This document shows positions 574 through 31,497 of a DNA stretch of 32,000 bases, one piece after another; the first letter of the stretch is position 1; each line of letters begins with the position of its first letter. The translations under genes were made by a program, and so were the position numbers. The notes beneath the pieces were generated by a model. The model made no database searches, was not told the origin of the DNA, and worked only from the letters and a program-made list of their open reading frames with translations. Source of the DNA: Acholeplasma laidlawii PG-8A. Its GTDB lineage: Bacteria > Bacillota_I > Bacilli_A > Acholeplasmatales > Acholeplasmataceae. The stretch spans positions 390,001 to 422,000 of the forward strand of contig NC_010163.1 in NCBI RefSeq assembly GCF_000018785.1, read 5' to 3'.

Positions 574-1589
574 AATTAGAATTATTTGATTATGATTTAC
601 CCAAATCACATATAGCGCAACATCCAAAAGATAAACGAGACCACTCAAAATTATTGGTTGTTGATAGAGAAAAACAAACAACAAAAGATTGTTTGTTTTA
701 TGACATCTTAGATGAGTTAAGTAGCAATGATGTACTAGTTATGAATAACACAAAAGTTATCCCTGCAAGATTAATTGGTGAAAAGATCGATACGCATGCA
801 GTCATTGAAGTTTTACTACTTAAAGAGTTAGAAAAAAACACTTGGGAAGCTTTAACGAAACCTGCCAAAAAAATTAAAATTGGTACTGTAGTAAGTTTTG
901 GTGATGGTGCACTTAAAATGGAGTGTATTGGCATTAAAGATGAAGGTATTCGCATCTTTAAAGCAATCTATGAAGGTATATTTTTAGAAGTACTAGATGC
1001 TTTAGGTACCATGCCACTACCACCTTACATAACGGAAAAATTAGAAGATAAATCAAGATATCAAACTGTTTATGCAAAATATGCAGGATCTGCTGCAGCA
1101 CCTACTGCAGGACTCCATTTTACCAAAGAACTTTTAGAAAAGATTAAAGCCAAAGGTGTTCAAGTATTAGAAATTACACTCCATGTTGGTTTAGGTACAT
1201 TTAGACCAGTTCAAGTAGATGATGTATTAGAACATCAAATGCACTATGAAAGTTATGAGATAAACGAAGAGACTGCCCGATTATTAAACCAATATAAAAA
1301 AGAAGGTAAAAGAATTATCGCAGTTGGTACAACCACTGTAAGAACACTAGAATCTAACTATAATGATGGATTCCATGCAGGTAATTACTCAACCAACATC
1401 TTTATTTATCCGGGATATCAATTTAAGATCATTGGTGCGATTATCACTAATTTCCATTTACCAAAATCAACGCTCATCATGTTGATTTCAGCATTCTATA
1501 ATAGAGAAAAAGTGCTTGAAGTCTATGAAGACGCAGTGAAAAAAAACTACCGCTTTTTCTCATTTGGCGATAGTATGTTTATTAAATAA
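570..1589 (+). CDS. queA: S-adenosylmethionine:tRNA ribosyltransferase-isomerase
   Basis: The TTG start overlaps the ruvB stop (TTGA), with AAGGA 11 nt upstream. The N-terminus [19 protein letters not shown]...SKLLVV and the [10 protein letters not shown] and NFHLPKSTL motifs are typical of QueA. Length is 339 aa. Confidence 0.93.
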
Positions 1590-2415
1590 TATATAAAGTA
1601 ATTGAAACTAGACCAACTGTTAAAGCATATAGAGAAAACCAAATTAAATTTTTAACAGTGACATATTTGTGCATGATCTTTATAGTTAATAACGAGAAGA
1701 TAAAACTAAATATAAAAGCAAGACTAAATCCTGGGATATCACTCATTGTTCCAGGATTTTTTATTGCATCATATAATCCTAGACCTGAAACAGGTATACT
1801 AATAAGTAAATAACATAGAAATGAAAAACGCATAACTTTTTTGATTTCAATTTTTTGACTCAAACCACCCACTAAGGTAATACCTGATCTACTAATACCT
1901 GGGAATACTGCAAACATTTGAATTAAACCAATCACACCGGCATTTTTAAATGTAATATCATTTGAAAACTTTTTGTTTCTTAAAAGGAAAACTAAGAATA
2001 ATAAGAGTGATGTTATGATAAGAGAAATACCTATGCTTAATAAATTTGTAGGTAGATAGTCTTTAATGAGTAATCCTGCAATCCCAATAGGCACAATGGC
2101 GATAATAAGTTTAACTGCATAACTAATGTTTTCTTGAACTATTATTTCTTTTCTTTTTTCTTTATTGAAAACAAAATTAAACGAATCGACTACTAACTCT
2201 TTAACATCTTTGAAATAATAGATTAGCAAAGCTAGAAATGAGCCCATATTGGTTATCATTAAAAATAATGTAAGTGTAGCATTTATATCTTCTCCACCTA
2301 AAAATAAATTAGAAAATAATACTAAGTGGCCAGAGCTGGACACTGGAAATATTTCAGTGACCCCTTGAATAATACCTAAAATTATATATTTAATTAACTC
2401 TATAATGTAATCCAT
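1582..2415 (-). CDS. uppP: undecaprenyl-diphosphate phosphatase (BacA/UppP family)
   Basis: A 277-aa polytopic membrane protein. It carries the UppP signatures [18 protein letters not shown] near the N-terminus and [14 protein letters not shown] in the second half. Confidence 0.9.
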
Positions 2416-2886: not shown

Positions 2887-3155
2887 AACAAAAATTTGTT
2901 ATCGTTTCAGAGTATGGGCTACACGCTAGACCGGCTACTCGTTTAGTAAATCAAGCAATGGGGTTCCAAAGTGAAATCACTTTAACCGCCTTTAACCGCA
3001 CAGTGAACTTAAAAAGTATCATGGGCGTTATGAGTCTTGGTATCTACAATGGTGAAATCGTAGAAATAAAAGCTGAAGGTGAAGATGCAAAAGAAGCTAT
3101 CGCTGGCATTACTGATTTCATGATATCCGAAGGATTAGGACAAATTAGCAAATGA
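2883..3155 (+). CDS. ptsH: phosphocarrier protein HPr
   Basis: 90 aa. The His15 motif is present (YGLHARPATRLV) and so is the Ser46 regulatory site (NLKSIMGVMSLG). Confidence 0.93.
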   Translation: MKQKFVIVSEYGLHARPATRLVNQAMGFQSEITLTAFNRTVNLKSIMGVMSLGIYNGEIVEIKAEGEDAKEAIAGITDFMISEGLGQISK

Positions 3156-4054
3156 TTAAAAAGGTACTCCAAGGTATGCTTATTGGTGTTGGAGCGATTT
3201 TACCTGGAGTAAGCGGTGGTATGATTGCTGCCGCTTTTAATATATATTCCAAGTTGATCGAAGCACTCGATAAAGTAACTAAAACGCCAATTAAGGCGGT
3301 CCTTTCAATATGGGAATACATTTTGGGCATCTTACTAGGTGTCCTAGTAGGATTTTTAGTGATTGCATATGTCTTTTACTTAATCCCTATTCCTAGTACA
3401 TTATTATTTATTGGTTTAATCTTAGGTGGTATACCTGAAATCTATAAACTAGCAGAAGAAAAGACTAGAAAATATAAGCCAATCATTATGTTTTTAATAA
3501 CCTTTATATTAATGATAAGTTTTACAATATTTGCACCATATCTTGCTCAAACAGATACATCCAATACGAACTTTGTACTTTGGATAGTTGTAGGGGTACT
3601 ACTGGCGGTCAGTTTAATTGTTCCAGGCTTAAGTGGTACGATGCTTATGTTAATTATTGGTTATTATGGACCACTCATCTTACTAGGTAAAACACTTATA
3701 GAAGCTGTATTTACTATTAATGTTGAGTTATTTATGAACAATATATTTTCTTTAGTATTTGTAGCAATAGGTATTATACTTGCATTTATTTTACTTGGTA
3801 AAGTATTTAATTATGTATTAAAGAAAGCACCAAAACTCTTCTATCAATTAATATTAGGTATTATTGTGGCTTCACCAATTAATATTATTTTTAGTTTAAA
3901 CGACGATTTACGACAAAGTGAAACACCAGTGCACATATTTGATTTTAGTAATCAGTGGTATATGTGGCTAATCGGTTTATTATGTATACCAATAGGTATA
4001 TATTTAGCCAGACTCTTTAGTAAGGAAGAAAAATATGAGACAAAAGAAAATTAA
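3152..4054 (+). CDS. DUF368 family polytopic membrane protein (PopT-type putative polyprenyl-phosphate translocase)
   Basis: 300 aa with about 8 TM segments. The DUF368 signature is duplicated: ILPGVSGGMIAAAF and IVPGLSGTMLMLIIGYY. The start overlaps the ptsH stop (ATGA). Confidence 0.75.
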   Translation: MIKKVLQGMLIGVGAILPGVSGGMIAAAFNIYSKLIEALDKVTKTPIKAVLSIWEYILGILLGVLVGFLVIAYVFYLIPIPSTLLFIGLILGGIPEIYKLAEEKTRKYKPIIMFLITFILMISFTIFAPYLAQTDTSNTNFVLWIVVGVLLAVSLIVPGLSGTMLMLIIGYYGPLILLGKTLIEAVFTINVELFMNNIFSLVFVAIGIILAFILLGKVFNYVLKKAPKLFYQLILGIIVASPINIIFSLNDDLRQSETPVHIFDFSNQWYMWLIGLLCIPIGIYLARLFSKEEKYETKEN

Positions 4055-17199: not shown

Positions 17200-18705
17200 A
17201 TGGTATTAATGAAAGGTATCACCAAAAGGTTTGGTAAATTAGTTGCCAATGATTCTGTGGACTTTGAAGTTAAAAAAGGTGAAGTTCATGCACTTTTAGG
17301 GGAAAATGGTGCAGGGAAAAGTACTTTAATGTCTATTCTTTTTGGTCTATACACACAAGATGAAGGACAAATTTTTATTAATGGTGAATTGGCGCATATT
17401 AAGCATCCAAATGATGCAGCTAAATACCGTATTGGTATGGTACATCAACATTTTAAATTGGTAGAAATATTTTCTGTACTGGATAATATTATTTTGGGTT
17501 CTGAAGAAACCAAAAATTCTTTTATTGTGTATAAGAATGCGCGTAATAAAATCATGGAGATCATTGAAAAATATAATCTACAGATTGATTTAGATAAAAA
17601 GATTAGTGAATTAACCGTTGGACAGCAACAAAAAGTAGAGATTATTAAAATGCTGTACAGAGACAGCGATATTTTAATTTTTGATGAGCCTACTGCTGTT
17701 TTAACACCTCAAGAAATCAAAGAATTGATTGAGATTATTAAAAACTTTGCAAAAGAAGGTAAGGCTGTTATTTTAATTTCTCATAAATTAAACGAAATTA
17801 AAATGTCCTCTGATCGTTGTACGATTTTAAGACGTGGTAAAAAAATAGCTACACTGGATGTTAAGGATGTTACTACTGAAGAGATGGCAGAACTCATGGT
17901 AGGTAGACCTTTAATTCAAGAATATGAAAAAGGTGCATTTAACCCGAAAGAAAATATTTTAGAAGTAGAAAATCTTACGCTTCATGGTAAAGGTAAAGAT
18001 ATTCTAAAATCTATTAACTTTCATGTGAGAAGTGGTGAAATTGTAGGTATAGCAGGTATTGATGGTAATGGGCAAACAGAACTAGCAAATGCGCTGACTG
18101 GACTATCACCAATTTCATCTGGTTTAATTAGACTCAAAGATAAGGATATTTCAAGACTTAATATTCGTAAACGTTATGAGGCGGGCTTATCCCATATTCC
18201 AGAAGATAGACATAAATTCGGTTTGGTTTTGGACTTTAAATAATCTGAAAACTTAGTCTTACAAGAATACTATAAAAAGCCATACTCAAATTACGGTATT
18301 CTAAATCATGACATCATTGAAGAACATGCTAAAAAGTTAGTCGAAAACTATGATGTACGTTCATCCAATAGTATTGATACAATTGCTAGAAGCATGAGTG
18401 GTGGTAATCAACAAAAAGCCATTCTTGCTAGAGAAATCGAACGCGAACATGACTTATTATTAGCATTCCAACCAACTCGAGGTCTTGATGTTGGTGCAAT
18501 TGAAAATATTCACAAGAACCTAATTAAAGAACGTGATCGTGATCGTGGTGTTTTATTAATTAGCTATGAATTAGAAGAAATATTTAACCTATCTGACCGA
18601 ATCTTAGTCATGTATGAAGGTGAAATCACAGGTTCATTTAAAACAAGTGATATCACAGCCAATGAACTGGGACTATATATGTCAGGATCTAAAAGGAGCG
18701 TATAG
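17200..18705 (+). pseudogene. two-NBD ABC transporter ATP-binding protein of the BMP/nucleoside system, interrupted by one in-frame TAA (18241-18243)
   Basis: ORFs 17200-18243 and 18394-18705 are in the same frame. The stretch 18244-18393 is also open and reads SENLVLQEYYKKPYSNYGILNHDIIEEHAKKLVENYDVRSSNSIDTIARS. NBD1 is complete (GENGAGKST, LTVGQQQKVEI, ILIFDEPT). The NBD2 Walker A (GIDGNGQTEL) lies before the stop, while the signature MSGGNQQK and Walker B LLLAFQPTRGLD lie after it. Confidence 0.8.
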
Positions 18706-21623: not shown

Positions 21624-21674
21624 CAGAGGTAACTAGTTCATGTTCAACCATGAAGTAGGTATCGCTGTTTTTTT
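21624..21674 (+). terminator. Rho-independent terminator after the deoxynucleoside kinase gene
   Basis: The 19-nt arms 21624-21642 and 21649-21667 form 15 Watson-Crick pairs, one G-U pair and 3 mismatches. The loop is 6 nt and a T7 run follows at 21668-21674. Confidence 0.65.
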
Positions 21675-21703
21675 ATACAAAAATACATGATAAAATAAAT
21701 TAT

Positions 21704-21740
21704 ACCAATAAAACATGGACTTAGATTGTATATTAAGTGC
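21704..21740 (+). promoter_or_regulatory. bipartite motif ACCAATAAAA-N12-TTGTATATTAAGTGC, copy 1 (candidate autoregulated ECF-sigma promoter)
   Basis: It exactly matches the motif at 23337-23373, with the same 12-nt spacer length. It abuts the GAGGAGA RBS of the sigma gene. The -35-position element is unlike TTGACA. Confidence 0.6.
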
Positions 21741-21750
21741 GAGGAGAGTT

Positions 21751-22263
21751 ATGGATCAAATACATGAGATCATAGAAGAGTTAAGGCAAAAAGACTATAA
21801 ATCATTTGATACATTCTACAACTTGACAAAGAATCAGGTTTTTTACGCAATCATAAATATTGTTAAAGATAAAGATCTGGCTCACGATATAATGCAAGAT
21901 ACATATATTAAATTTCTTGAAAAGATTGACCAATATAAGTCAGGTGCCAATCCATACGCATACATCTCAATGATAGGTAGAAATCTAGCGATTAATACTT
22001 ATAATAGGCAAAAAAGATTAATTAAGTCAGATGAGCTATTAGAGTCTATTCCTGCAGATAAAGAAGTAGAAAATGATGAAGATATATTTAAGATCCTGAA
22101 TTTACTAAATGATGATGAGAAAGAAGTTGTAACACTTCACGTCATTAATGATTTAAAATTTAAAGAAATAGCAAAAATTATGGAAAAACCACTAGGTACT
22201 GTCTTATGGATTTACAATAAGGCAATAAAGAAACTAAAGGATAAGGTAGGTGATGTCTTATGA
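21751..22263 (+). CDS. ECF-type (group 4) RNA polymerase sigma-70 family factor
   Basis: I preferred the ATG at 21751, after a GAGGAGA RBS at 21741-21747. The ORF track starts at 21715. Region 2 (DLAHDIMQDTYIKFLEKIDQY, PYAYISMIGRNLAINTYNRQKR) and the region 4.2 HTH (LKFKEIAKIMEKPLGTVLWIYNKAIKKLK) are present. There is no region 3. Confidence 0.85.
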   Translation: MDQIHEIIEELRQKDYKSFDTFYNLTKNQVFYAIINIVKDKDLAHDIMQDTYIKFLEKIDQYKSGANPYAYISMIGRNLAINTYNRQKRLIKSDELLESIPADKEVENDEDIFKILNLLNDDEKEVVTLHVINDLKFKEIAKIMEKPLGTVLWIYNKAIKKLKDKVGDVL

Positions 22264-23312
22264 AGAAAAATGAAGTAATCAATTTAATCAAAACTAAAGC
22301 CCAAGAAGTAGAGATTAAGGATTTAACTTCCAATATCTTAGAACGCGTTAAAAATATTTCTTATGAAGAAGAAGTTAAACCGCTACCTAAGTTTAGATTT
22401 AGACCTAGACTCGCATTTAGTGCATCTTTATTATCCTTGTTTCTAGTATTTATCTTTTCACTATTTATCTACCCTGAAATGACTAATCAAAATGTAGCAC
22501 CACAATTTGAAAATATGGAAAATGTTTTGATGTTTTCATCAATATCAACTTCTACATTATTAGATACATCAAATACATCTGACCTCTCCACTTATCTGTA
22601 TGACTTAAATGGTAGAAATAATAATGAAAATCAAAATAAAATAGATGATGAACTAACAGAACTTACTAAATATTTTGGAGTTATGGAAAAACTTTTTGCA
22701 AGTAAACATAACTTTGAGTTAAAAGTAGATGCAGCTAAAGCTGGATATGGTGAGTCTATGAGATTTAAGACTAAAGATTTCTTAAATGAAGAGACACAGT
22801 ATGAAATGAACTTAAACCAAAATTATGATGAGACATCTCATCAATACAACATTGATGGTGAACTTATTATAGGATCTTTGAACTATCAAGTACGTGGTAA
22901 GAGTTTAGATAAAAGATTAGAAACAAGAACCTCAATTGATGATCAAAACTATATGGATATGAATTATGAATTAATTGATGAAAAACATCACTTTGACTTA
23001 CTTCAAACTAAAGAGGGTATCCTTATAGAGGATGTTACACTAATCATTGAAGAAATAGATAATAAAAGAATTGTTGAATTATATATTAATAAAGATCAAG
23101 GTATATTAAGTTATACATTTGAAATGTCCATAGAATCCAATAATCGTGTATTAAAGGTAAATTATTTACTCGGTGATGAATCACTTGAAAGCGGAGAACT
23201 ATTAATTAGAATCAGACAAAATCAAGGCGAAAATATTTATTCAGTACTAGTTAAGCCAGATAATGGTATCCCTTATCAAATTAATAAGGGTAGAAAATCA
23301 CCACAAAAATAA
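22260..23312 (+). CDS. single-pass membrane protein, putative cognate anti-sigma factor (non-ZAS)
   Basis: It has an ATGA overlap with the sigma gene. About 58 aa are cytoplasmic, followed by one TM segment (LAFSASLLSLFLVFIFSLFIY) and about 270 aa of N/D/E-rich extracytoplasmic sequence. There is no His/Cys zinc motif. The assignment rests on position and topology only. Confidence 0.5.
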   Translation: MKKNEVINLIKTKAQEVEIKDLTSNILERVKNISYEEEVKPLPKFRFRPRLAFSASLLSLFLVFIFSLFIYPEMTNQNVAPQFENMENVLMFSSISTSTLLDTSNTSDLSTYLYDLNGRNNNENQNKIDDELTELTKYFGVMEKLFASKHNFELKVDAAKAGYGESMRFKTKDFLNEETQYEMNLNQNYDETSHQYNIDGELIIGSLNYQVRGKSLDKRLETRTSIDDQNYMDMNYELIDEKHHFDLLQTKEGILIEDVTLIIEEIDNKRIVELYINKDQGILSYTFEMSIESNNRVLKVNYLLGDESLESGELLIRIRQNQGENIYSVLVKPDNGIPYQINKGRKSPQK

Positions 23313-23336
23313 AAAAATAAAAAAAATTACAAAATC

Positions 23337-23373
23337 ACCAATAAAATCAATGCCTCGTTTGTATATTAAGTGC
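23337..23373 (+). promoter_or_regulatory. bipartite motif ACCAATAAAA-N12-TTGTATATTAAGTGC, copy 2
   Basis: It is identical to copy 1 in both conserved blocks and in spacing. An A-tract precedes it at 23305-23328. The AAAGGAGG RBS of the 310-aa gene follows it directly. Confidence 0.6.
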
Positions 23374-23389
23374 AAAGGAGGCATTTAGT

Positions 23390-24322
23390 ATGAAAAAAGG
23401 ACTAGCTATACTATTTGTAGTAACATCAATTATCGCGGTATTTGCATTTTTACCAAGAGCAAATGCAACTGATACATATGTGACACTGGATATTAATCCA
23501 AGTGTAGAATTAATCGTAACACCAGGTGATCGAGTTATTTATGCCAATGCATTAAATGAAGACGGTGTTGTATTACTAGCTGATTTAGAGTTAGTTGGTA
23601 AGAAAATTGACGTGGCAGTTACCTTAATCATCGATAAGTCCATTGAATTAGGATTTATTGTTGAGGGTGATGATGAAACTATCGTATCAGTTTCAACCAT
23701 ATCTGAAAATAATAAAATGGGTGAACTCATGAAAGAAAAAATTAAGACACGTATTAATGGTGCCTTAAATGATAAAAAAGTTCATGGTCATGCAGAAGAT
23801 AAACCAGACAACGGTTATCAACCATCATTTATTTTAGAAGCTAGATTACATAATGTATCACCGGGTTACCTATTCTTGGCTAAAAAAGCTGTGTATGTTG
23901 ATGGTGAATTAACACTTGAAGCTGCACTTGAAATGAATGTAAGTGATTTACAAACAATCATTCGAGAGGCTTTTGTAGCACAAAAAGAAGTAATTAGTGA
24001 TGCACGTGAAGTATTCTTAACTGCTAAAGCAGAACTTATCAACACCTACAAACCACAATTTGAAGCGTTTGAAACTCAAATTGCTGACTTAACAGCTCAA
24101 ATTGAAGCTACTGAAGATGAAACTGAAAAAGCAAATTTAGAAGCATCATTAGCTATAGTTGTTGATGATTATGAAACTTTAAGATTAGAATTTAAAACTG
24201 AACTTGAAGTGATTAAAGATGCATTTGTTGAAGAAATCATAAATCTAAAAGACGCACTTAAACTATTTAGATTTGGTTTTAGATTCAAGCATGGATCAAG
24301 CGTAGAATTTAACCGTCCATAA
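23390..24322 (+). CDS. exported or membrane-anchored protein with an RsgI-juxtamembrane (SEA-like) type domain and a C-terminal coiled coil
   Basis: A signal or anchor sequence is present (MKKGLAILFVVTSIIAVFAFLPRANA-TD). It is followed by YVTLDINPSVELIVTPGDRVIYANALNEDG, which parallels B. subtilis RsgI YMTIDINPSVEMALNSDYEVIELTPLNDEG (recalled from memory). The C-terminal ~130 aa are rich in heptad-like E/K/L/A repeats. Confidence 0.6.
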   Translation: MKKGLAILFVVTSIIAVFAFLPRANATDTYVTLDINPSVELIVTPGDRVIYANALNEDGVVLLADLELVGKKIDVAVTLIIDKSIELGFIVEGDDETIVSVSTISENNKMGELMKEKIKTRINGALNDKKVHGHAEDKPDNGYQPSFILEARLHNVSPGYLFLAKKAVYVDGELTLEAALEMNVSDLQTIIREAFVAQKEVISDAREVFLTAKAELINTYKPQFEAFETQIADLTAQIEATEDETEKANLEASLAIVVDDYETLRLEFKTELEVIKDAFVEEIINLKDALKLFRFGFRFKHGSSVEFNRP

Positions 24323-24375: not shown

Positions 24376-24424
24376 TAAAAAAGGAAACCAAGTTTTCAAT
24401 CCCCTAACTTGGTTTCCTTTTTTT
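24376..24424. terminator. bidirectional Rho-independent terminator between the sigma module and gcvPB
   Basis: A perfect 14-bp stem, AAGGAAACCAAGTT (24381-24394) with AACTTGGTTTCCTT (24406-24419), is flanked by an A-run upstream and a T-run downstream. Confidence 0.8.
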
Positions 24425-31335: not shown

Positions 31336-31354
31336 TTTTACGAATCCAATTAAA

Positions 31355-31472
31355 TCATCTTCGGGGCGAGGCGCAATTCCTCACCGGCAGTTAAAGTCTG
31401 CGAGCAAATTTTACATTTGCAGGATCCTGTGTAATTCAGGTACCGACAGTATAGTCTGGATGAGAGAAGAAA
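31355..31472 (+). promoter_or_regulatory. FMN riboswitch (RFN element) aptamer
   Basis: ATCTTCGGGGCGAGGCGCAATTCCTCACCGGCAG...GTCTGCGAGC...CCGACAGTATAGTCTGGATGAGAGAAGAAAAT matches the conserved RFN core (CUUCGGGGCAGGGUGAAAUUCCC.ACCGGCGG ... CCGACAGU.AAGUCUGGAUG.GAGAAG). P1 closes through TCTTC and GAAGA. Confidence 0.9.
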
Positions 31473-31497
31473 ATTATTCCTTTTTTAGGTATTTTTG

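Follow-up and report, generated by a model that had tools for sequence, protein, structure and literature searches.

SEAL domains have so far been regarded as a site-1 switch built into the RsgI anti-sigma factors of walled Firmicutes, where the cell wall or plant polysaccharides do the pulling. In the SigI/RsgI systems of Bacillus subtilis and Clostridium (Hungateiclostridium) thermocellum the gene for the SEAL protein is linked to a sigma factor gene, and the SEAL domain (PF23750) carries an invariant D-x-N-P-S hairpin right after the membrane anchor. In RsgI the site of autocleavage has been mapped by experiment (Brogan et al. 2023, PMC10556640) and falls between the hairpin's conserved N and P; the same study mentioned SEAL proteins without an anti-sigma domain (SEAL-PepSY fusions), sometimes without a transmembrane (TM) helix, for which autocleavage was predicted or shown. 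Here we describe a three-gene cassette in a stretch of 32,000 nt from Acholeplasma laidlawii PG-8A (the window, to which all positions refer unless stated otherwise), in which a SEAL-domain protein of 310 aa is encoded beside an extracytoplasmic function (ECF) sigma factor of 170 aa and a single-pass membrane protein of 350 aa, the presumed anti-sigma factor.

The second group of close relatives is formed by classical ECF operons such as sigW, sigM and sigX of B. subtilis and rpoE-rseA-rseB of Escherichia coli, where, as in the cassette, a sigma factor with regions 2 and 4 is translationally coupled to a single-pass membrane protein and the sigma factor's own operon carries a motif with an AAC-like -35 element, a spacing of N17 and a (C/T)GTA -10 element. 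Elements of the AAC/CGT type separated by N17 represent the canonical geometry of ECF promoters, and sigmaA and ECF promoters in tandem, an arrangement also found here, are known for several Bacillus ECF operons including sigM and sigX. The cassette departs from these operons in its -35 (CCAAT) and -10 (TGTAT) sequences, in having a SEAL-domain protein as its main target, and in a presumed anti-sigma factor that lacks a recognisable anti-sigma domain or zinc motif and has an undescribed beta-rich ectodomain. It departs from SigI/RsgI in that its sigma factor is of the ECF type, no RsgI_N domain is present anywhere in the cassette, and the SEAL domain resides on its own polypeptide (a lipoprotein or secreted protein without a cytoplasmic part), so that cleavage cannot prime a RasP/RseP cut of the same chain. 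Furthermore, the C-terminus is a helical hairpin here, whereas it is an intrinsically disordered region or a carbohydrate-binding module in RsgI, and the host is wall-less, Acholeplasma being a wall-less Mollicute; the source of the DNA bears out what the initial annotation, made from the sequence by itself, had suspected of the host. Like the SEAL-PepSY proteins, the 310-aa protein has its SEAL domain detached from any cytoplasmic anti-sigma domain, but its partner domain is a helical hairpin, it belongs to a family of lipoproteins, and it sits in an ECF cassette with an ECF promoter.

We consider it probable that the cassette works as an ECF module whose sigma factor is held by the 350-aa protein, is released upon an envelope or extracellular cue and transcribes from two ECF-type promoters, P1 ahead of its own gene and P2 ahead of the SEAL gene (plus a protease operon in relatives), with the SEAL protein being an exported, self-cleaved and tethered surface protein. 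In the literature we found no description of an ECF cassette with a SEAL lipoprotein encoded in trans, nor of its promoter. The arrangement was considered new at the outset; SEAL proteins lacking an anti-sigma domain, however, had already been noted in Brogan et al. 2023.

The cassette, its sigma factor and its promoter motif

All three genes lie on the forward strand: ACL_0392 for the ECF sigma factor (21751..22263), ACL_0393 for the single-pass membrane protein (22260..23312) and ACL_0394 for the exported SEAL-domain protein (23390..24322). The stop codon of the first and the start codon of the second overlap as ATGA at 22260-22263. The complete order is terminator, P0 (a sigmaA-type promoter), P1, sigma gene, 350-aa gene, P2, SEAL gene, terminator. 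When hidden Markov models (HMMs) and phmmer were applied to the six-frame open reading frames (ORFs) of all fetched loci, collinear sigma, 350-aa family and SEAL genes were found in 43 loci; nine further contigs end inside the 350-aa gene and are not counted among these. The genes around the cassette vary from lineage to lineage. The SEAL gene is located elsewhere in two loci (L012 and L044), and a Clostridia-like homologue (L007) has no nearby sigma gene and is preceded by a sigmaA-like promoter. The sigma, 350-aa and SEAL genes are a self-contained, conserved ECF module of the Acholeplasmataceae, and the term orphan, first applied to the SEAL gene, has to be dropped.

That the sigma factor is a minimal one, with regions 2 and 4 only, had been proposed from its translation and is agreed upon by Pfam (Sigma70_r2, 3.9e-10; r4_2, 2e-8), by TIGR02937 (69.7 bits against a cutoff of 42.9; 2.2e-19) and by its best relatives in the PDB, SigH, SigE, RpoE and AlgU, all of which are ECF sigma factors and none SigI. 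No NCBIfam equivalog model passes for the protein, and the SigI model is absent among the 25 best of the 94 NCBIfam families matched. The protein belongs to the ECF (group 4) superfamily and is not of the SigI type. Its orthologues are all 170 aa long and start with MDxIH; the start at 21715 given in the ORF list is spurious, since that ATG lies in the promoter spacer.

The sequence ACCAATAAAA-N12-TTGTATATTAAGTGC occurs at 21704-21740 and at 23337-23373 (37 nt each). The exact coordinates and the equal spacer length reported initially were both reproduced, as were the strong ribosome-binding sites (RBSs) said to abut the two copies, GAGGAGA at 21741-21747 ahead of the sigma ATG (21751) and AAAGGAGG at 23374-23381 ahead of the SEAL ATG (23390). 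No third copy had been seen by eye, and the window contains only these two matches even when three mismatches are allowed; dinucleotide shuffles predict 0.00. The 12-nt spacers are wholly unlike each other (CATGGACTTAGA vs TCAATGCCTCGT), and unrelated spacers between identical blocks imply constraint on the two blocks rather than a recent duplication.

In form, the motif is an ECF-type promoter, ACCAAT-N17-TGTATA, and we infer that it depends on the sigma factor of the cassette. In P1 (21704..21740, forward strand) ACCAAT at 21704-09 is followed after 17 nt by TGTATA at 21727-32, with a predicted start at about G21739. In P2 (23337..23373, forward strand) ACCAAT at 23337-42 spans -35 to -30 and TGTATA at 23360-65 spans -12 to -7 with respect to the transcription start site (TSS) at G23372. 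The blocks CCAATAAA and TTGTAT(A) precede both genes in every orthologous locus, with their spacing fixed and the spacer sequence free, and 100 unique promoters give the consensus aCCAATAAAa...ttGTATatta.gtG. The median distance from the -10 element to the start codon is 25 nt for sigma genes and 31 nt for SEAL genes. When 535 kb of related loci were searched, 80 copies of the core turned up on the coding strand, each immediately ahead of a sigma or SEAL gene; the opposite strand had one.

A distant clade (L072, L077, L081 and L084) has a diverged ECF sigma factor together with a different duplicated motif, GCAACAAA-N13/14-(C)GT(A/T)TAATAAGCG; this motif (GCAAC-N17-CGTAT) precedes both the sigma gene and the lipoprotein-SEAL gene of the clade. 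The promoter motif thus co-varies with the sigma factor between clades. The motif of the distant clade has the textbook AAC/CGT signature of ECF promoters, of which CCAAT/TGTAT is a variant with unchanged N17 geometry. SEAL genes that are displaced from the sigma gene have retained the motif (L044, L054 and L017, as well as L012, where it has CGTATAC). It is on the basis of the footprint, the co-variation between clades, the displaced genes, the additional targets and the mapped start of P2 that we regard the motif as the promoter of this sigma factor.

The SEAL protein, the membrane protein and the regulon

The 310-aa protein comprises a signal peptide (residues 1-26, 23390-23467), a SEAL domain (residues ~29-187, 23474-23950; from PF23750, RsgI structures in the PDB and an AlphaFold2 model) and a helical hairpin (residues 184-302, 23939-24295; AlphaFold2), all on the forward strand. 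PF23750 (RsgI_M) matches residues 29-137 with 83 bits (cutoff 25.3; E 3.6e-23), and the first residue of the PDB chains of the cleaved C. thermocellum RsgI ectodomain aligns to P37 (E 1e-8). The AlphaFold2 model, with a predicted local distance difference test score (pLDDT) of 87.5, has a strand at 29-34, a turn at 35-37 and a strand at 38-43, then an alpha/beta core followed by helices 184-240 and 244-302, which are packed back on each other. The top 10 Foldseek hits in the PDB are all RsgI SEAL or periplasmic structures (8T9N, 2.5e-6; template modelling score normalised to the target 0.65-0.76). None of the DINPS residues (D34, I35, N36, P37 and S38) varies among 50 homologues, and the predicted scissile bond between N36 and P37 (codons at 23495..23500, forward strand) falls within the beta1-beta2 hairpin. 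By profile, fold and motif the protein contains a bona fide SEAL domain, as the likeness to the juxtamembrane domain of RsgI had led the initial annotation to expect; the long coiled coil predicted after it is indeed a long helical region, modelled as a helical hairpin. The length of this hairpin varies at the tip, and an xRP sequence at the extreme C-terminus is kept in most homologues (NRP here, 24314-24322); it might be a docking or recognition tail.

A lipobox is found in 40 of the 50 SEAL homologues, 8-12 residues before the first strand, while the A. laidlawii clade has a signal peptide like those cut by signal peptidase I, ending in P[KR]xxA (here LPRANA↓TD). Only ~3 residues precede the hydrophobic segment of the 310-aa protein, and RsgI_N (PF12791) has no match at E<=1 in either the 310-aa or the 350-aa protein. 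To judge by these sequences, the piece left in the membrane after cleavage would be a lipidated peptide of ~17 residues, or in A. laidlawii a signal-anchor stub or a free decapeptide. Since the SEAL protein has no cytoplasmic domain and is usually a lipoprotein without a TM helix, it cannot itself be a substrate for regulated intramembrane proteolysis (RIP) in the manner of RsgI, and the parallel with RsgI drawn at the outset has to be corrected on this point. With no RsgI_N, a partner sigma factor that is not SigI and no TM helix to serve as substrate, the protein is not an RsgI.

In other respects the protein resembles eukaryotic SEA domains (MUC1) and MAIN/GAIN domains, where, as predicted here, the chain is cut in a loop linking two strands within a single sheet and the distal part stays non-covalently on a membrane stub, and where force-dependent release has been proposed; MAIN/GAIN domains are known as autoproteolytic surface-release modules in microbes (bioRxiv 10.64898/2026.05.12.724683). 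Those systems differ in their fold families and catalytic motifs, and have no dedicated link to a sigma factor.

In the AlphaFold2 model of the 350-aa protein, two short helices at the N-terminus are followed by a stretch rich in K and R, a TM segment at ~49-71, a conserved juxtamembrane segment (PQFENMxNVLMFSSIST), two helices and a 14-strand beta meander at 155-345. The beta domain reaches a pLDDT of 75-90, compared with 65.5 for the whole model, and the two short helices, which lie in the cytoplasmic N-terminus (residues 1-48), are of low confidence. Residues 1-48 contain no Cys or His and no HxxxCxxC zinc motif, so the description of an ATGA-coupled, single-pass protein without a zinc motif is upheld. 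No PDB match was obtained by sequence or profile search, nothing in Pfam or NCBIfam matches the protein, class I/II anti-sigma profiles (ASD, zf-HC2) included, and 37 diverse members of its family are likewise free of Pfam domains. Foldseek of the model against the PDB returned weak beta-barrel resemblances (best nitrobindin, E 1.5e-2, template modelling score normalised to the query <0.2), which we do not interpret. An exhaustive profile search yielded 492 cluster representatives of the family, many of them without a cytoplasmic part, and the ectodomain represents a large, undescribed and unannotated beta-rich family. We presume that the 350-aa protein is an anti-sigma factor because of the ATGA translational coupling, its invariant adjacency to the sigma gene and its single-pass topology. 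In Anaeroplasmataceae MAG065 (L092, 7203-8000) the motif precedes a lipoprotein that is a stand-alone version of the 350-aa ectodomain; it matches an HMM of the 37 family members at 2e-20, while hhalign with the single sequence was negative.

The pattern ACCAATAAAA-N12-TTGTATATTA was scanned across a species-representative genome collection and returned 30 stretches, ~25 of them Acholeplasmatales-like and ~5 chance hits elsewhere. The genes behind the motif were sigma genes (12), SEAL genes (9) and, in four genomes, the gene for a secreted S8 subtilase of 832 aa with Listeria-Bacteroides (Flg_new) repeats and an immunoglobulin (Ig)-like domain. Three more divergent S8 orthologues have the motif too, and all seven S8 loci examined carry it (L090, 4273-6832; L099; L112; L104; L120-L122). 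In this the regulon is reminiscent of C. thermocellum SigI/RsgI, where the sigma factor controls secreted degradative enzymes. A gene for a 175-aa Ig-like protein lies downstream of the S8 subtilase gene in L120-L122. No A. laidlawii S8 orthologue was present among the best 120 hits. The scan of the collection gave no hit in A. laidlawii, though the pattern occurs twice in the window and in GCA_013389475.1; the A. laidlawii representative in the collection may be masked or different at the motif.

In the distant clade (here L064, L070, L072, L077, L081 and L084) the ECF sigma gene is followed by a gene for a protein of 450-463 aa with a cytoplasmic N-terminus, a TM segment, a SEAL domain and a helical region but no RsgI_N, and a separate lipoprotein of 407-501 aa contains a SEAL domain and a coiled coil; both promoters share GCAACAAA...CGTATAATAAGCG. 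When the 350-aa family was compared with these SEAL-containing anti-sigma-like proteins by hhalign, no N-terminal homology was detected over the short region concerned, although the two look alike by eye.

Natural variants of the cassette are also on record. At position 23694 (forward strand) the window has C (Ser102) where other A. laidlawii assemblies (GCA_013389475.1, for example) have A, creating a TAA stop. Eleven A. laidlawii contigs carry this C-to-A change (see L119, 2662-3594), which leaves ORFs of 101 aa and 197 aa, whereas the allele in the window is intact; of the split gene, the NCBI annotation covers the 197-aa tail only. A protein identical at 100% is present in NCBI, and one A. 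laidlawii assembly differs from the window by 2 single-nucleotide polymorphisms over the compared cassette. P0096, a protein of 189 aa from an A. laidlawii relative in the Logan assemblies, is a fusion in which residues 1 to ~122 of the sigma factor are continued by the final ~65 residues of the SEAL protein. It points to a natural loss of region 4 of the sigma factor, of the whole 350-aa gene and of the bulk of the SEAL gene, or possibly to an assembly artefact. The cassette is dispensable in some settings.

In the mechanism that we propose, an extracytoplasmic cue would inactivate the membrane protein, and the freed sigma factor would read ACCAAT-N17-TGTATA, initiating transcription of its own operon at P1 and of the SEAL gene at P2, as well as of the S8 subtilase operon in many relatives. 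The exported SEAL protein would then, by homology, cut itself between N36 and P37. The large C-terminal fragment, comprising the remaining SEAL fold and the helical-hairpin stalk, would be held non-covalently by the tiny N-terminal anchor; most species would use a lipopeptide for this, whereas A. laidlawii would have a signal-anchor or short peptide. Force or shedding could then set the protein free from the surface, which would make it something other than an RsgI-like RIP substrate.

A different and, in our judgement, unlikely but still credible possibility, in essence that of the initial annotation, is that the cassette encodes an RsgI-like sensor split in two, with the SEAL ectodomain docking on or shielding the 350-aa anti-sigma factor, such that loss of the fragment by force or ligand would lead to proteolysis and sigma release, and sigma-driven resynthesis would provide homeostatic feedback. 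The SEAL gene stays beside the sigma and anti-sigma genes across the Acholeplasmataceae and is retained even in the distant clade whose anti-sigma-like protein has a SEAL domain of its own. The regulon is tiny and centred on the SEAL gene, and membrane-proximal segments are conserved in both proteins, namely the N-terminal region of the SEAL protein with the C-terminal xRP, which the hairpin turns back towards the membrane, and the juxtamembrane segment of the 350-aa protein quoted above. By analogy, CpxP (acting on CpxA) and RseB (acting on RseA) are pathway-induced exported proteins that modulate a membrane sensor, although neither has any sequence or structural relationship to the SEAL protein. 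These arguments are, however, circumstantial; the SEAL gene may sit apart from the sigma gene (L044, L012), a nonsense allele is tolerated in many strains, and a plain output gene would equally appear as a sigma target. A fuller version, which we hold just as tentatively, would make the SEAL ectodomain a sheddable mechanosensor acting in trans: it would guard an anti-sigma factor that lacks a SEAL domain of its own, its loss through force, ligand or the co-regulated S8 protease would cause the anti-sigma factor to be degraded, and resynthesis would reset the system.

Transcription starts and tandem promoters

The TSSs of A. laidlawii PG-8A have been mapped by their 5'-ends (Fisunov et al. 2016, Supplementary Table 1, PMC5138195). 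Three starts on the minus strand (ACL_0372, ACL_0398 and ACL_0400) served, through their spacing, to place the window on these coordinates, where it maps without an indel; the published coordinate is the window position plus an offset of 390,001. At this offset each of the 11 anchor TSSs starts with a purine and is preceded at 5-7 nt by a TAnnnT box, and the score is 16.5 of 16.5, compared with 11.5 for the next-best offset. The published TSS of ACL_0394 (413373) is G23372, 6 nt past the TGTATA of copy 2, and initiation downstream of the motif, as first predicted, is thereby confirmed for this copy; its counts are 0/0.45 in the control and 1.35/3.08 in heat shock. The TSS of ACL_0392 (411703) is A21702, directly upstream of motif copy 1, and belongs to P0 (21688..21702, forward strand), which has a sigmaA-type extended -10 element, TGaTAAAAT (TG at 21688-89, TAAAAT at 21691-96). 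Here the counts are 2.21/1.8 in the control and 11.45/12.32 in heat shock (about 6-fold induction), so both cassette TSSs go up in heat shock.

Of 45 sigma promoters, 82% have a TAWAAT sequence within the 70 nt that precede the motif, compared with 30% of shuffles and 20% of SEAL promoters. With P0 conserved next to the P1 motif, the sigma operon can be described as having tandem promoters. A scan of the region for the sigma-70 consensus found no enrichment (16 found vs 18.4 expected), and it missed P0 since this promoter has no -35 element. P0 would supply basal sigma factor and presumed anti-sigma factor, and autoregulation would take place through P1; the motif precedes every sigma gene examined, while the published map has a start only at 21702 for the sigma operon.

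At P2 the spacer (AAUGCCUC) pairs with the Shine-Dalgarno region of the SEAL gene (GAGGCAUU) and, together with an inner helix, forms a hairpin at 23349..23385 on the forward strand (-20.4 kcal/mol, z -5.96); a comparable structure was not found at P1 (z -1.0). Other lineages have matched variants of the two arms (AATTCCTC/GAGGAATT, TATTCCTC/GAGGAATA, AAATCCTC/GAGGATTT and AATACCTCC/GGAGGTATT), and between lineages the arms differ in five or six compensatory ways. Among 43 unique SEAL promoters, 19% have a helix of 8 bp or more, in comparison to 3.6% of cross-locus pairings, 0.3% of shuffled spacers and 0% of sigma promoters; the hairpin is restricted to certain clades and many lineages are without it. 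Since the start at G23372 lies 3' of the left arm, only mRNA reading through from P0 or P1 would have a masked RBS. In A. laidlawii this anti-Shine-Dalgarno hairpin would therefore limit SEAL translation to mRNA initiated at P2.

Several observations weigh against the module as we have proposed it. The published PG-8A map lists no start at the predicted P1 position (~21739), and the sole mapped start of the sigma operon is that of the sigmaA-type P0. The read counts at P2 are very low (0 to 3.08), and its TGTATA overlaps a weak TATATT, so that a contribution by sigmaA is possible. On the side of the proteins, the 350-aa protein has no match to a known anti-sigma domain in Pfam or NCBIfam, the A. 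laidlawii SEAL protein has no lipobox, and its autoproteolysis between N36 and P37 is predicted by homology only. Finally, the nonsense allele occurs commonly among the A. laidlawii strains that have been sequenced, which means that the SEAL protein is dispensable in culture. The dedicated alternative-sigma promoter first proposed is retained, as the footprint, the co-variation, the regulon members and the TSS of copy 2 speak for it, with the correction that the start mapped for the sigma operon belongs to the sigmaA-type P0, ahead of copy 1.

Some of these points could be taken to mean that the motif is a sigmaA promoter with a TATATT-like -10 element plus a conserved site for another regulator, and is not read by the cassette sigma at all, since TATATT (23362-67) resembles TATAAT, the -10 region of the distant clade contains TATAAT, and the mapped start of the sigma operon is of the sigmaA type. 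We regard this as very improbable. TATATT is just 4 nt from G23372, whereas the range reported for A. laidlawii is 5-7 nt (PMC5138195), and the hexamer at -12 to -7 is TGTATA, which lacks A-11 and T-7. Moreover, the -35 block is invariant, is unlike TTGACA and becomes GCAAC together with the diverged sigma factor, the N17 geometry of the AAC/CGT type is canonical for ECF promoters, and the sigma factor is the only DNA-binding protein of the cassette. That the repeat is a functionless chance match or a product of recent local duplication or gene conversion, for which only the AT-rich composition could be cited, is refuted by an expectation of 0, unrelated spacers between identical blocks, ~100 promoters in divergent species and a mapped TSS.

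Surroundings and meaning of the module

The ECF module is bounded on both sides. Upstream, a terminator-like hairpin with a U7 tract (21625..21674, forward strand; RNA fold -13.7 kcal/mol, z -2.86) ends the dNK gene and insulates the cassette, and an equivalent hairpin and T-run are found upstream of orthologous sigma genes. Downstream, a bidirectional terminator (24377..24424; -22.1 kcal/mol, z -6.26) with A-run and U-run flanks is common to the SEAL gene and the convergent gcvPB. The upstream neighbours are housekeeping genes (dNK and a nucleoside ABC transporter), and downstream lies a convergent glycine-cleavage operon. Elsewhere in the window, the ATPase of the PnrA-type nucleoside ABC transporter is represented by an ORF of 347 aa (17200-18243) followed by one of 103 aa without a domain match (18394-18705), and its gene may be split or frameshifted. 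An FMN riboswitch is located at 31353-31475 (Rfam RF00050, 102 bits), with a published TSS (421343, window 31342) 11 nt upstream. Genes for UppP/BacA (1582-2415, reverse strand) and a DUF368 undecaprenyl-phosphate translocase-like protein (3152-4054, forward strand) are present in this wall-less organism, where they presumably serve the synthesis of lipoglycan or another polyprenol-linked glycan.

The cassette broadens the use of the SEAL domain: beyond the built-in switch, it is found here as a lipoprotein of its own, controlled by an ECF sigma factor, in organisms that have no wall. In a related clade, a SEAL anti-sigma-like protein and the SEAL lipoprotein exist side by side. Should the SEAL ectodomain turn out to act in trans as a mechanosensor, it would mean that RsgI-like mechanotransduction has been split over two polypeptides, in bacteria without a cell wall. 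The analysis also defines an undescribed ECF promoter of Mollicutes together with its likely regulon, made up of the sigma operon, the SEAL gene and the operon of an S8 protease. As a small and genetically simple system with natural null alleles, it is well suited to asking whether the cleavage products of SEAL domains may function as tethers that are sensitive to force or shedding.

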